Shown here: piece after piece, positions 33,613 through 37,664 of the stretch
How positions within the stretch are numbered: the first letter of the stretch is position 1
Layout: each line of letters starts with the position of its first letter
Source: Candidatus Liptonbacteria bacterium
Lineage (GTDB): Bacteria; Patescibacteriota; Minisyncoccia; UBA6257; 2-01-FULL-56-20
Reading direction: 5' to 3'
DNA length: 64,000 bases
Assembly (NCBI GenBank): GCA_016204385.1
Contig: JACQKW010000015.1
Location: forward strand, 98,155 to 162,154
Translations under genes and position numbers: made by a program
The notes under the pieces: model-generated
What the model saw: only the letters and a program-made list of their open reading frames with translations
What the model was told of the DNA's origin: nothing
Database searches by the model: none

Positions 33613-34563
33613 TTACGTTTGCAACCCGTGCGCAAGATACCACTCGATTGTTTTTCGTAGCCCGTCCTCAAAATTCGTCTTCGCGCGGAAGCCAAATTCC
33701 TTCGCCGCACGGGTGGTATCGAGCATCCGCCGCGGCTGGCCGTCCGGCTTCGACGCATCCCATCGAATCCCTCCTCTGTAATTCATGAACCGCGCGATGA
33801 GCACGACAAGATCTTTGACGGAAATTTCCATGCCCGACCCCAAATTCACGGGCTCCGGTTTATCGTAGCGTTCCGTGGCACGCGCGATTCCTTCTGCGGC
33901 ATCCTCCACAAAGAGAAACTCTCTCGTCGCGTTCCCCGTGCCCCACGCGTTGATATGCGGGGCGTGATCGCGTTTCGCCTCCGCGACTTTCTTTATGAGC
34001 GCGGGAATCACGTGGGAGCTTTTCGGATCGAAATTGTCCCCGGGACCGTAGAGATTTACGGGGAGGAGATAAATGGCGTTCCATCCATACTGCGCGCGGT
34101 ACGCCTGCGCTTGGACCAGCATCATTTTTTTGGCTAAACCATACGGCGCATTCGTTTCCTCCGGGTACCCTTTCCAAAGATCGTCCTCTTTAAACGGCAC
34201 GGGGGTGAATTTCGGATAGGCGCAAATGGTGCCGATCGCCACGAATTTCTCGACCCCCGCAAGGCGCGCCGCTTCCATCATCTGCGCCCCCATGATCAGA
34301 TTATCGTAGAAAAGCTCGCCGGGCTTTTCGCGGTTGTAGCCGATGCCGCCCACATTCGCCGCAAGGTGAATCACCACATCTTGTCTCTTGACCACCTCCT
34401 TACAACGTTCCCACGTTCGCAGGTCATACTCGTTCGCGCGCGGCAAAAACAATTGTTTCCCTTGAACACCGCGTGCCTCCTTCAAATTTTTTACGAGATG
34501 CGACCCAAGAAACCCGTGCGCACCCGTAATGAGGATTTTTTTGTCTTTGAGGGTCATGGGCAA
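33613..34563 (-). CDS. fcl: GDP-L-fucose synthase-type 3,5-epimerase/4-reductase (Fcl/WcaG family)
   Basis: [22 protein letters not shown], NxxxxxxFxYDNLIM, YGLAKK. 316 aa, which is the typical Fcl length. Confidence 0.8.
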
Positions 34564-35526
34564 TTAGTACCCCAACCGTTTTCGGTTGTTTGCATACCAC
34601 TCGATCGTCTCTCGGAGCCCGTCCGTGAGCTTTACTTCAGGCTTCCAGCCGGTTGCCTGCATAAGTTTCGAGATGTTCAATACTTTGTGGAGCGCGCCAT
34701 CGGGTTTCGAAGCATCCCACCGTATCGTTCCTTTGAATCCGACGATTGCGCAGATTGTCTCCGCGAGTTCCTTAATCGGAGTGCCTACGCCGGTGCCGAC
34801 ATTCAAAGGTTCCGGATAATTTCCGAGTTCCGTAATCGCAACGATCGCCTTCGCGGCGTCCGAGGCAAATATGAACTCCCGCACTGCCGCGCCGGTTCCC
34901 CATACTACCACTTCGCGCTTCCCATCCTCGCGCGCATCGACAAACTTCCGGATGAGCGCGGAGGCCACGTGCGACCGATCTGGGTCGAACGTATCTCTCG
35001 GTCCGTAAAGGTTCGCAGGCACCGCGAAAGAAAAGTTCAAGCCGTGCTCCCGCGCATATGCCCGTGCCCCCAAAAGCAACGCGCGCTTTGAGAATCCATA
35101 CACCTCAACCGTCGGATGGAGCGGCCCCGCAAGGAGGTCTTTCTCTTCAAAATTTCCCGTAAGCGCCCCCGGGTACATGCAGGCCGATCCCACGATCATA
35201 AGTTTCTGAATCTTATGCTCGATCGAAAGATCGAGGATGTTGAGCGCCATTATTACATTGTCCCGAAAGATGGCGCTCGGATACTTTACGTTATACCCGA
35301 TGCCGCCCACCTTCGCCGCCGCATGGATCACGATATCTGGCGCGAATTTTTGGAATGCCTCGCCATAACTCCCTTTTTTCGTAAGATCGTACTCCTCCAT
35401 GCGCGGCGAAAAGAGGTTCGTGCCGGGAACACCGCGCGATGTAAGCTCGTGAATGAGATGGGAACCTAAAAATCCCGAACCTCCCGTCACAAGTATTTTT
35501 TTGTCCGCAAGCCTAATCCGTTCCAT
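34564..35526 (-). CDS. Second Fcl-family epimerase/reductase paralog (candidate ColC-like GDP-4-keto-3,6-dideoxymannose reductase or other GDP-sugar reductase)
   Basis: KILVTGGSGFLGSH, AAAKVGGIGYN, YGFSKR. 320 aa. It is in tandem with fcl and adjacent to a ColD-like gene. Confidence 0.7.
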   Translation of the reverse strand: MERIRLADKKILVTGGSGFLGSHLIHELTSRGVPGTNLFSPRMEEYDLTKKGSYGEAFQKFAPDIVIHAAAKVGGIGYNVKYPSAIFRDNVIMALNILDLSIEHKIQKLMIVGSACMYPGALTGNFEEKDLLAGPLHPTVEVYGFSKRALLLGARAYAREHGLNFSFAVPANLYGPRDTFDPDRSHVASALIRKFVDAREDGKREVVVWGTGAAVREFIFASDAAKAIVAITELGNYPEPLNVGTGVGTPIKELAETICAIVGFKGTIRWDASKPDGALHKVLNISKLMQATGWKPEVKLTDGLRETIEWYANNRKRLGY

Positions 35527-35542
35527 ACAATCCTATGACATC

Positions 35543-36649
35543 CTACGCAAGCAGTGGTTTCACGGTGTGTACCATAAATGCAAGGTCTTCGTCGGTAAGA
35601 TTCTGATGAATGGGGAGATACAGCGTCCGGTGCGAAAGATCTTCGGCCACCGGAAACGCGCCGGGCGTATAGCCAAGATAACGATATGCTTCCTCGTCGG
35701 TTGGGATGGAGCTAAAAAGTTTTCGGCATTCGATGCCCGCATTAAAGATTTTCTGAAGCGCTTCATCGCGCTGGTTCTGGCTCGCAAACATGAGGGGAAA
35801 TCCGTGGAGCACGTGGGAGCGATCGGAAGTGTCGGGAATGAGATCAACGCCCAACCCATCCCGCAACACTGCGTAATTTCGCTTTTTCTTTGCAATGAAT
35901 TCATCGAGGCGTCCAATGAGTCCCAGGCCGATGATGGCTTCCATCGAATTCATTTTTGCGTTAAAGCCGATGCGGGGAAACACAAATTTTTCCGCCACGT
36001 TGTGGCTCTTGACCGCATGATTGCGGAGCGAAACAATAAGATCCGCCATTTCCTTGTGCTTCGTCACCACCATGCCCCCTTCCCCGCAGCAAATGGTATG
36101 CGACGCAAAGAATGAATACGTCCCTGCGTCGGCAAGCGTCCCTGCATATTTTCCTTTATACGTGGATCCGAACGCCTCGCAGTCATCGCTCAAGAACCAG
36201 ATGCCGCGGCGCCTCGCAATATCAGCAATTGCATCCATATCGCAAAATCCTCCGAGAAGATTCACGGGCGTAATGGCGAGGGTGCGGGGAGTGATTTTCT
36301 CTTCAATTTTTGAGGTGTCAATCTGAAAATCCGGCCCGACGTCAACAAATACCGGCTTCAGGTGGTTATAGTAGGCGGCATTCACGTGCGCAATAAACGT
36401 AAGCGCAGGAATGATGACTTCGTCTTTTCCCGGCCGCAAATATTTTGCGGCCGCGAGCATTAATGTATCTGCGGCGGTGCCGGAAGAAGCGCTGAGCGCG
36501 TAGGGTGCGGAAAATTTTTTCCGGATTGCTGCTTCAAAATCTTCTGTGTAGCGCCCCTGGCTTATCACGCCTGCGTCGAGCGCCTCACGCATGAGTTTCT
36601 TAGTTTCCTCGGTGATATTGACCGACCCCAAATGAACTTTCACCCCCAT
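35543..36649 (-). CDS. DegT-fold enzyme with His replacing the PLP lysine, a ColD-like GDP-4-keto-6-deoxymannose 3-dehydratase candidate
   Basis: 368 aa. It has SFFASHTICCGEGGMV, that is H at the canonical K position, and lies immediately downstream of gmd. Confidence 0.7.
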   Translation of the reverse strand: MGVKVHLGSVNITEETKKLMREALDAGVISQGRYTEDFEAAIRKKFSAPYALSASSGTAADTLMLAAAKYLRPGKDEVIIPALTFIAHVNAAYYNHLKPVFVDVGPDFQIDTSKIEEKITPRTLAITPVNLLGGFCDMDAIADIARRRGIWFLSDDCEAFGSTYKGKYAGTLADAGTYSFFASHTICCGEGGMVVTKHKEMADLIVSLRNHAVKSHNVAEKFVFPRIGFNAKMNSMEAIIGLGLIGRLDEFIAKKKRNYAVLRDGLGVDLIPDTSDRSHVLHGFPLMFASQNQRDEALQKIFNAGIECRKLFSSIPTDEEAYRYLGYTPGAFPVAEDLSHRTLYLPIHQNLTDEDLAFMVHTVKPLLA

Positions 36650-36650
36650 A

Positions 36651-37664
36651 CTATGCGTTTTTTACCATCTTCTCCATTCCATACTCCTCGAGATCGTGCA
36701 CGAGCATCATGCGCGTGAGTTCCTTAAAGGTAACCTTCGGTTTCCACCCCAGTTTTTCTCTCGCTTTCCGCGCGTCGGCAACCAAGTGCACGACTTCGGT
36801 CGGGCGGTAATAGCGCGGATCTATCTCCACGTAGGATTTCCAGTCGTGGACGCCCACGAGCCGGAACGCTTCTTCCACAAACTCCCCCACGCGGTGGCTC
36901 TCCCCGGTGCCGATCACATAATCATCGGGTTCGGACTCTTGCAACATTTTCCACATCGCTTCGACGTACTCCGGCGCATACCCCCAATCGCGCTTCGCCT
37001 CAAGGTTTCCGAGAAAGAGCTTCTTCTCTTTCCCGGCGAGAATCCGTGCAATGCCATGCGTGATTTTCCTTGTCACAAACGTTTCGCCGCGGCGGGGGGA
37101 CTCGTGATTAAAAAGTATCCCGTTCGCCGCAAAGATGCCGTACGCCTCGCGATAGTTTCTCGTGGTGTGGAATGCAAATACCTTCGAGGCGCTATACGGG
37201 CTCCGCGGATAAAACTTCGTCTCCTCGTTCTGCGGCGGCGGCGCGGCGCCGAACATCTCCGAACTCGACGCCTGATAAAACTTCACCTTCTTCCTCGCGT
37301 GTTCTTCGTAATCTTTGATTCCTTCAAGGAGCCGCAGCGTGCCGACCGCGACGATGTTCGCGGTGTACTCGGGAATATCGAAACTTACGCGCACGTGCGA
37401 CTGGGCGCCAAGATTGTAGATTTCATCAGGCTGAACCTTATATATGAGCTTCCGCACGGTGCTCGCGTCCGCAAGGTCGCCGAAGTGAAGGTGCATCTTC
37501 ACCCCGTTTACATGCGGATCGGTATATAGATGGTCAATACGGGACGTATTGAACGACGATGCGCGCCGGATAATCCCGTGCACTTCGTATCCCTTCGAGA
37601 GCAGGAGTTCCGCAAGATAGGAACCGTCTTGGCCGGTAATGCCGGTGATGAGGGCTTTCTTCAT
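36651..37664 (-). CDS. gmd: GDP-mannose 4,6-dehydratase
   Basis: [35 protein letters not shown], then [13 protein letters not shown] and RDWGYA. This is a textbook Gmd. 337 aa. Confidence 0.9.

Follow-up and report, generated by a model that had tools for sequence, protein, structure and literature searches.

The stretch of DNA analysed here, 64,000 nucleotides (nt) of contig JACQKW010000015.1 from a Candidatus Liptonbacteria bacterium (hereafter the window), contains a five-gene minus-strand operon, running from position 37664 down to 32616 in the order gmd, degT1, fclA, fclB and cj1427-like, which most likely makes guanosine diphosphate (GDP)-linked 3,6-dideoxy and 6-deoxy sugars for a surface glycan. 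At its centre is DegT1, a DegT-fold enzyme in which the pyridoxal 5'-phosphate (PLP) lysine of related aminotransferases is replaced by histidine and which would be a functional analogue of ColD, the 3-dehydratase of GDP-colitose biosynthesis, but is not its orthologue. Taken as a whole, the model in which Gmd, DegT1 and FclB form a colitose-type route and FclA provides a second product is regarded as rather probable. Functions throughout the operon and the surrounding island were assigned from sequence and genomic context, the elements read directly being the family-level identities of the genes, the conserved histidine substitution, the intact catalytic sets, the operon layout and a recurrent gene triad.

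The histidine of DegT1 and its operon setting

DegT1 (35543-36649, minus strand) matches PF01041 with 304 bits and carries the motif SFFASHTICCGEGG. In a phmmer alignment, its His184 (within YSFFASHTICCGEGG; codon CAT, 36098-36100) falls in the column of the PLP lysine of the Caulobacter crescentus GDP-perosamine synthase Per (FSFFGNKIITTGEGG). The same column is occupied by His188 of ColD and His220 of E1, which were recognised through the H188K/N and H220K mutant chains deposited in the PDB. The replacement of lysine by histidine, on which the original prediction had been built, is thus real: instead of a conserved PLP lysine on proper alignment, histidine is kept in all 120 of the best DegT1 homologues, down to 35% identity, and a sequencing error can therefore be discarded. 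The cofactor-binding residues around His184 are invariant in an alignment of 50 sequences, and the AlphaFold2 (AF2) model of the protein has a mean predicted local distance difference test (pLDDT) score of 93.7. Judged by this conservation, the site reads as an active one of the pyridoxamine 5'-phosphate (PMP) type, neither an error nor the relic of a pseudoenzyme.

The lysine-to-histidine exchange has been described as what chiefly sets sugar 3-dehydratases (E1, ColD, SpnQ) apart from aminotransferases (PMC8987622). In DegT1, Ser183-His184 aligns with S187-H188 of ColD (published numbering), so that the aminotransferase 'N-K' motif reads 'S-H' as it does in ColD, and the protein has the wider histidine-class signature of ColD and, for the most part, of E1 (L97, C157, S183, F222 and F224). 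The histidine had been proposed to be diagnostic of ColD-type enzymes. It does place DegT1 with the PMP-dependent sugar 3-dehydratases, but it is also found in cytidine and thymidine diphosphate (CDP-/TDP-) sugar dehydratases and is thus not specific to ColD. In our reading, DegT1 is a probable member of the dehydratase functional class. Within this class, a four-cysteine [2Fe-2S] motif is present in E1 and SpnQ and absent from ColD (PMC8987622). Direct reading of DegT1 revealed no iron-sulfur (Fe-S) cysteine motif, with a single cysteine C-terminal to residue 210, and a ColD-like, reductase-independent route is therefore expected (PMC8987622).

The encoded proteins match those of a Candidatus Liptonbacteria metagenome-assembled genome (Patescibacteria, or Candidate Phyla Radiation, CPR) at 100% identity. 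The four open reading frames (ORFs) which the original prediction had described as a block (33613-37664, minus strand) were all found, separated by gaps of 0-16 nt. A fifth gene, which it had missed and which would be the better link to heptose metabolism, extends the unit to five genes with gaps of 0-40 nt throughout. The operon is proposed to comprise gmd-degT1-fclA-fclB-cj1427-like because the last gene is followed by a terminator-like hairpin with a T-run (32452-32477, minus strand) and then by a new sigma-70-like promoter, TTGACA-17-TATACT, matching at 11 of 12 positions (32413-32441, minus strand) and located 5' of a flavoprotein gene. Both calls are consensus matches only, of kinds whose total counts are no higher than expected from shuffled sequence.

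The genomic context of the DegT1 subfamily was surveyed in 85 loci from genomes and metagenomes, a sample biased to long contigs. A Gmd 55-77% identical to that of the window lies upstream in 22 of the 33 DegT1 homologues sharing at least 45% identity, and immediately adjacent in 12 of the 26 loci with enough flank. Of 20 loci with sufficient flank, 12 have a FclB-like gene (53-72% identical) directly downstream of the DegT1 homologue. The subfamily is thus usually found in a gmd-degT-fcl triad. In the nearest relative for which context is available (L074, 71% identical), the order Gmd-DegT1-FclA is the same as in the window, and a FclA-FclB tandem occurs in L044. More distant homologues (37-43% identical) come after another GDP-sugar short-chain dehydrogenase/reductase (SDR), whose best PDB match is Rmd (209 bits) and which scores 158 bits against the Campylobacter jejuni GDP-heptose 4,6-dehydratase. 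None of the 10 papers listed in a literature search connected colitose to Patescibacteria.

The proposed pathway and its alternatives

The proposed route begins with Gmd (36651-37664, minus strand), the first gene of the operon, which scores 515 bits against TIGR01472 (cutoff 415). With 466 bits to the Arabidopsis thaliana GMD (1N7G) and 418 bits to the Escherichia coli Gmd (1DB3), it is well supported as an orthodox GDP-mannose dehydratase, which would convert GDP-mannose to GDP-4-keto-6-deoxymannose. By analogy with ColD, DegT1 with PMP would form a ketimine at C4 of this sugar, His184 would mediate proton abstraction from C4' of PMP and the C3 hydroxyl would be expelled, leading to GDP-4-keto-3,6-dideoxymannose, while PMP would be regenerated by L-glutamate. 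FclB would conclude the sequence by C5 epimerisation and C4 reduction to a GDP-3,6-dideoxy-L-hexose, either colitose or its C4 epimer, a role suggested by its genomic context.

FclB (33613-34563, minus strand), a GMER/Fcl-type epimerase/reductase and the conserved partner of DegT1, and FclA (34564-35526, minus strand), a GMER/Fcl-type 3,5-epimerase/4-reductase present as an extra paralogue, are 43% identical and score 280 and 284 bits, respectively, against NF047922 (cutoff 500). Alignment to E. coli Fcl showed that both retain the GMER catalytic residues S/T107, C109, Y136, K140 and H179 (SCYKH in FclA, TCYKH in FclB), in which Ser/Thr-Tyr-Lys constitute the reductase triad and Cys109/His179 the epimerase dyad (PMC7949155). 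In this they are unlike DdahC and MlghC, the heptose reductases of C. jejuni, which lack the Cys/His dyad and have no epimerase activity (PMC7949155), the heptose epimerases of that organism being separate cupin proteins.

Two options can be put forward for FclA, which would either convert the Gmd product to GDP-L-fucose or another 6-deoxy-L-hexose, or complete a 4-keto sugar made from GDP-heptose or GDP-mannose by the Cj1427-like C4-dehydrogenase. Relatives of FclA pair with Cj1427-like genes in two loci (L045 and L046), with neither Gmd nor DegT within the 5-7 kb of flank examined. In a related CPR genome (L128, 642-4524), three Fcl-family paralogues stand in tandem behind Gmd, of which one reads STYKH at the catalytic positions, without Cys109, and another ACYRK; such tandem diversification of Fcl-type enzymes behind gmd thus seems to be frequent in these bacteria.

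The type of pathway is already known, and the enzyme lineage, the partner lineage and the gene order are variants of it. The GDP-L-colitose pathway of E. coli O55 and Yersinia pseudotuberculosis VI (Gmd, ColD/WbdK and ColC) uses the same enzyme types in tight clusters and shares with DegT1 the S-H motif and a His-type PMP enzyme without Fe-S cluster. It differs in that DegT1 is ~20 residues shorter than ColD and nearer to the size of perosamine synthase, in that gmd-colC-colD is the order in most of ~30 reference loci compared with gmd-degT-fcl in the window, and in that ColC is 32-39% identical to FclA and FclB.

The last gene of the operon (32616-33572, minus strand) encodes an SDR of 318 residues which is a putative GDP-sugar C4-dehydrogenase. 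The ORF as called (32616-33758) overlaps fclB; its true start, MGDSDKNK, lies at 33572, and the corresponding NCBI protein (P0388, 318 residues) is 100% identical. Its best PDB matches are 6VO6/6VO8 (279 bits, the next best reaching 88 bits), identified as C. jejuni Cj1427 through Foldseek entry titles, with 43.8% identity to 6VO6 and template modelling (TM) scores of 0.90-0.94 between Cj1427 and the AF2 model (pLDDT 87.4). By direct reading, STGSNYG stands where the GDP-sugar dehydratase-type SDRs compared have STSEVYG (Thr/Ser-x-Glu), leaving no 4,6-dehydratase signature, and the YxxxK motif is YGRQK. In CPR genomes, members of this family are 61-76% identical among the matches listed (n=119) and have as neighbours cupin epimerases, sugar C-methyltransferases, a Lys-type DegT and GmhA/GmhB-like genes, a variety that fits a general role as '4-keto generator'. 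The C-methyltransferase genes (PF08421/PF08484) recur beside Cj1427-like or Fcl-like genes in six CPR glycan loci (L001, L044 and L128-L131), which hints at C-methylated sugars.

The neighbouring gene (31237-32379, minus strand) encodes a flavin adenine dinucleotide (FAD) oxidoreductase resembling L-2-hydroxyglutarate oxidases/dehydrogenases. It scores 233 bits against NF008726 (cutoff 299) and 127 bits against the Drosophila L2HGDH (PDB 8W75), and shares 26% identity with LhgD of E. coli (E 9e-42). Cj1427 itself recycles its bound reduced nicotinamide adenine dinucleotide (NADH) with alpha-ketoglutarate, forming L-2-hydroxyglutarate, and in vitro it yields GDP-3-deoxyheptoses when combined with a C3-dehydratase (PMC10680097). 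The flavoprotein and the Cj1427-like enzyme may thus form an alpha-ketoglutarate/L-2-hydroxyglutarate recycling pair. The two genes adjoin each other here and again, with their order switched, in L004/L047; six other Cj1427-like contexts have no such neighbour, and a general association, seen in only 2 of ~8 lineages examined, was not retained.

These genes open an alternative in which the Cj1427-like dehydrogenase, and not Gmd, supplies DegT1. In one reading of it, C4 of GDP-heptose or GDP-mannose would be oxidised with retention of the C6 hydroxyl, DegT1 would remove the C3 hydroxyl and an Fcl-type reduction would give a 3-deoxy (6-hydroxy) sugar, while the flavoprotein would re-oxidise L-2-hydroxyglutarate to the alpha-ketoglutarate needed by the dehydrogenase. 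The location of a Cj1427 homologue in the same predicted transcript as degT1, the recurrence of this pairing in L004/L047 and, in divergent orientation, in L006, the opposite gene orders in which the LhgO-like neighbour occurs in two lineages, and the in vitro precedent with its alpha-ketoglutarate recycling (PMC10680097) all speak for it. Nevertheless, most DegT1 homologues are accompanied by Gmd and not by a Cj1427-like gene, most Cj1427-like genes are without the flavoprotein (L045, L046, L128-L131), and the flavoprotein itself is a distant LhgD relative, below the LhgO cutoff and with its own predicted promoter and terminator. This alternative is thus judged unlikely, and the same small chance is given to the operon being a natural route to GDP-3-deoxy (6-hydroxy) heptoses or hexoses in which the Cj1427-like enzyme and DegT1 act together and the flavoprotein closes the NADH-recycling loop. 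To our knowledge, reports of this class of sugars are as yet limited to enzymes mixed in vitro. The alpha-ketoglutarate released from glutamate by DegT1 could feed the same loop.

The C. jejuni system in which Cj1427 acts with Cj1430 and Cj1428 to form GDP-D-glycero-L-gluco-heptose resembles the window in its homologue of the fifth gene and in the Fcl-family genes alongside. It differs by a cupin epimerase which is not in the window operon, where each Fcl paralogue retains an epimerase dyad of its own. We know of no description of an LhgO-like flavoprotein neighbour in C. jejuni.

It had also been proposed that Gmd could act on GDP-heptose. The resulting 6-deoxy- or 3,6-dideoxy-heptoses would be comparable to those of C. 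jejuni HS:5. Such a route is known, consisting of a 4,6-dehydratase, a C3-dehydratase that depends on PLP and a C4-reductase (PMC10440746), and the C. jejuni HS:5/HS:11 pathway to GDP-3,6-dideoxyheptose follows the same logic as that proposed here, with formation of a 4-keto sugar, PLP/PMP-dependent loss of the C3 hydroxyl, and epimerisation and reduction (PMC10440746). As in the window, the heptose-synthesis genes of C. jejuni lie within the same glycan locus. Moreover, members of the DegT1 subfamily (47-50% identical) occur inside heptose operons, directly behind GmhA-like genes and not Gmd in L055, L057, L061 (3368-11324) and L090, and beside an HddA/GmhA-like pair in L062, with neither Gmd nor an obvious 4-keto-generating enzyme nearby. 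However, C. jejuni has a 4,6-dehydratase devoted to heptose (7US5), against which the window Gmd scores just 121 bits, a ranking (466 and 418 bits to authentic GDP-mannose dehydratases) on which Gmd was rejected as a heptose dehydratase. The C3-dehydratases of that pathway are orthologous to ColD, with which they share 62-67% identity (PMC10440746), unlike DegT1; FclA and FclB are matched by the C. jejuni heptose C4-reductases over their N-terminal half only; and the heptose genes of the window lie ~30 kb away from the operon with many other genes in between. Heptose entering through Gmd is thus quite unlikely, and the link between the operon and heptose more likely runs through the Cj1427-like gene, as its sequence suggests.

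Ancestry of DegT1 and its Fcl-type partners

The relationship of both His-variant DegT proteins of the window to ColD, E1 and Per, a comparison which the original prediction had called for, was examined in a neighbour-joining tree of 194 sequences, comprising 150 representatives of a search of 1.84 billion proteins, canonical ColDs derived from genomes, E1, Per, DegT1 and the second protein, DegT2 (see below). At the key column, 95 of these sequences have histidine and 99 lysine. All 95 histidine sequences fall in one clade (bootstrap 48), and in 90-95 of 100 bootstraps a group is recovered that holds at least 90% of them with at most 3 lysine sequences. DegT1 and ColD come together without Per in 96-98 of 100. 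The outcome differs for the two proteins. DegT2 belongs to a clade with ColD and E1 (bootstrap 95), whereas neither this clade nor that of the canonical ColDs (bootstrap 97) includes DegT1, which lies in a separate 40-member clade consisting only of His-type enzymes (bootstrap 70). With an identity of 30.1% to ColD and 29.7% to E1, and this position, orthology of DegT1 to ColD is ruled out, and the claim that it is of ColD type does not hold in the orthology sense. The best NCBIfam model for DegT1 is RfbH (193 bits, cutoff 423), which covers its N-terminal half only. Several relatives are proteins of 750-780 residues (P0124, P0126, P0136, P0140 and P0153) in which DegT-type sequence occurs twice or in which additional domains are joined to the DegT domain; His-type as well as Lys-type copies are among them.

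For the Fcl paralogues, a neighbour-joining tree of 92 sequences united E. coli Fcl, a second structurally solved Fcl and 22 canonical ColCs in a single clade (bootstrap 97), within which the Fcls branch from among the ColCs. Its sister (bootstrap 81.5) is the FclA clade, itself recovered with a bootstrap of 67, and the FclB group falls outside. It had been suggested that one paralogue is ColC-like and the other Fcl, and that clustering with Fcl could tell them apart. The test was run and does not discriminate, because canonical ColC and E. coli Fcl share a single clade, outside which both paralogues fall; naming one paralogue ColC and the other Fcl from the tree was therefore abandoned. The assignment of FclB to the ColC role as the partner of DegT1 is a tentative one, drawn from its genomic context, which alone singles it out.

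Several results weigh against the colitose-type route through DegT1. Pairwise identity and predicted structure both put DegT1 closer to Per, an aminotransferase, than to ColD. Per of C. crescentus (PDB 3BN1; 34.6% identity, 179 bits) is its closest solved structure, the nearest being ~35% identical at best, and it also takes the Gmd product as substrate. The AF2 model of DegT1 is nearest to sugar transaminases and Per (TM 0.91, root-mean-square deviation 2.0), with E1 at rank 23 and ColD (2GMS, TM 0.86) at rank 42. Structural search was nevertheless set aside as a means of separating dehydratases from aminotransferases, all DegT folds lying between TM 0.85 and 0.92 with Per above ColD. Strict monophyly of the His enzymes was recovered in 45-57 of 100 bootstraps. 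After masking of the 18 columns with the greatest power to tell His sequences from Lys sequences (among them the Ser-for-Asn preceding the histidine, L97, C157, F222 and F224), strict monophyly fell to 15, the group with at least 90% of the His sequences to 38 and the grouping of DegT1 with ColD to 50 of 100. The signal joining DegT1 to ColD and E1 thus sits in ~18 function-linked columns, so that common descent and convergence are indistinguishable, and a strict common origin of all His enzymes was not established. All trees are neighbour-joining trees assessed with bootstraps only. Both Fcl paralogues score under the Fcl equivalog cutoff and lie outside the Fcl/ColC clade. The DegT1 subfamily as such appears to be a large uncharacterised His-type group whose function is read from sequence and context. 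As to the source of GDP-mannose, neither ManB nor ManC was found among the scanned ORFs of the window.

That DegT1 is a sugar 4-aminotransferase forming a GDP-perosamine-like product, the histidine being a tolerated substitution, agrees with its top pairwise and structural matches and with the public names of DegT1 and its homologues (aminotransferase, dTDP-4-amino-4,6-dideoxygalactose transaminase, perosamine synthetase; 0 of the 120 nearest homologues has a dehydratase name), but is very unlikely, as none of these 120 homologues has the lysine, the His-dominated tree group holds two experimentally proven dehydratases, DegT1 reads 'S-H' where Per has its PLP lysine K186 in an 'N-K' motif and differs from it at other class-specific positions too, the conserved downstream partner is a 4-keto-reductase/epimerase which would be left without substrate were C4 aminated, and no N-acyl- or formyl-transferase is adjacent to DegT1.

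Collectively, the overall interpretation with which this analysis started is upheld for the lysine-to-histidine class of DegT1 and for its colitose-type setting, but not for ColD identity, for the ColC/Fcl split or for the action of Gmd on heptose.

The surrounding glycan island and its wider meaning

The operon sits inside a surface-glycan island of ~38 kb, whose start follows directly on three genes (37683-41349), namely rny, coding for RNase Y, one resembling O-antigen ligases (Wzy_C) and one for a small membrane protein. The same three-gene flank is followed by different glycan genes in another CPR genome (L129, 1-2820), a sign that a hypervariable glycan locus may occupy a conserved site.

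DegT2 (26936-28168, minus strand) is the second His-variant DegT protein that had been expected in this DNA, with His190 encoded by CAC. It is E1/RfbH-like (NF011936 345 bits, cutoff 423), is 36% identical to E1 and contains SFYASH aligned with SFYPAH of E1, in which His220 has its equivalent. Three of the four Fe-S cysteines of E1 are absent, the E1 cluster segment WGRDCYCAPGCDNTC being aligned with WGRESTLFGAYAKSED, a segment of DegT2 without cysteine; a ColD-type route requiring no reductase would therefore be expected by analogy. No E3-type reductase, as used by the Yersinia E1 system, was seen among the scanned ORFs of the window. Downstream of DegT2 on the same strand (21219-28168) are an RmlB-like nucleoside diphosphate (NDP)-glucose 4,6-dehydratase (24016-25110, minus strand; TIGR01181 324 bits, cutoff 365), which is the likely source of the DegT2 substrate, an SDR and a YerE-like thiamine diphosphate (ThDP) enzyme of the acetolactate-synthase fold (21219-23051, minus strand), whose best PDB match is 8RPH (379 bits; acetolactate synthase II 327 bits). 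The protein in 8RPH is JanthE, which has been termed a 'YerE-like enzyme' (PMC12188165).

With the dehydratase, the SDR and the ThDP enzyme within 6 kb of DegT2, this arrangement resembles the yersiniose pathway of Yersinia (E1, also named DdhC/RfbH, with YerE/YerF) and suggests a branched, yersiniose-like 3,6-dideoxyhexose. In yersiniose biosynthesis, YerE reportedly adds a two-carbon branch to the E1 product, as described by Chen et al. in 1998. Directly after the ThDP enzyme (18980-21209) are a PanB-like gene (TIGR00222 219 bits, above cutoff) and an aspartate-aminotransferase-like gene. PanB is 3-methyl-2-oxobutanoate hydroxymethyltransferase, and the two genes may serve the synthesis of a non-sugar substituent or encode partners of the ThDP enzyme.

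At the start of the window (2-2646, minus strand), all four types of heptose gene are present and contiguous, and a heptose operon is plausible from these matches. They comprise a GHMP kinase resembling HddA (1588-2646; NF049969 149 bits, cutoff 600; Pfam GHMP_kinases_N and _C), a SIS-domain isomerase resembling GmhA (980-1582; NF010546 97 bits, cutoff 276; Pfam SIS_2), a HAD-IIIA phosphatase resembling GmhB (423-977; NF006506 164 bits, cutoff 178) and the N-terminal 140 residues of a sugar-1-phosphate nucleotidyltransferase (2-421; PF00483 58 bits), which scores 62 bits as HddC and 84 bits as MurU. The description of this operon as 'complete' stands for the kinase, the isomerase and the phosphatase, whose genes are whole, but not for the operon, since the kinase and the isomerase score far under the cutoffs of their curated models and the nucleotidyltransferase gene is cut by the window edge.

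Two further proteins of the window have unusual architectures. A class I aminoacyl-tRNA synthetase of 1285 residues (Ile/Leu/Val/Met type; 52190-56047) has a histidine-phosphatase domain (PF00300, residues 562-719) inserted within the match to its catalytic domain, and a protein of 870 residues (60789-63401), which may be related to defence or repair, carries a PHP domain at the N-terminus along with an SMC/RecF-like AAA ATPase (AAA_21/AAA_23).

If the proposed function of DegT1 is correct, PMP-dependent sugar 3-dehydratases would extend beyond ColD and E1/SpnQ to a third lineage, of the size of perosamine synthase, which would be frequent in Patescibacteria as well as other uncultured groups and at present carries the label 'aminotransferase' everywhere. 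The capacity for 3,6-dideoxysugar formation read from metagenomes would change accordingly, and the lineage would offer a natural series of enzymes in which to follow how a lysine-to-histidine switch makes a transaminase into a dehydratase. The pairing of Cj1427-like and LhgO-like genes, if it functions as proposed, would offer an answer as to how an alpha-ketoglutarate-dependent 'ping-pong' dehydrogenase keeps running in vivo. For the organism, the proposed functions would mean that an ultrasmall, host-dependent bacterium spends tens of kilobases on several rare-sugar branches, colitose-like, fucose-like, modified heptose and possibly a branched dideoxyhexose, which would point to strong selection on the diversity of its surface glycan.

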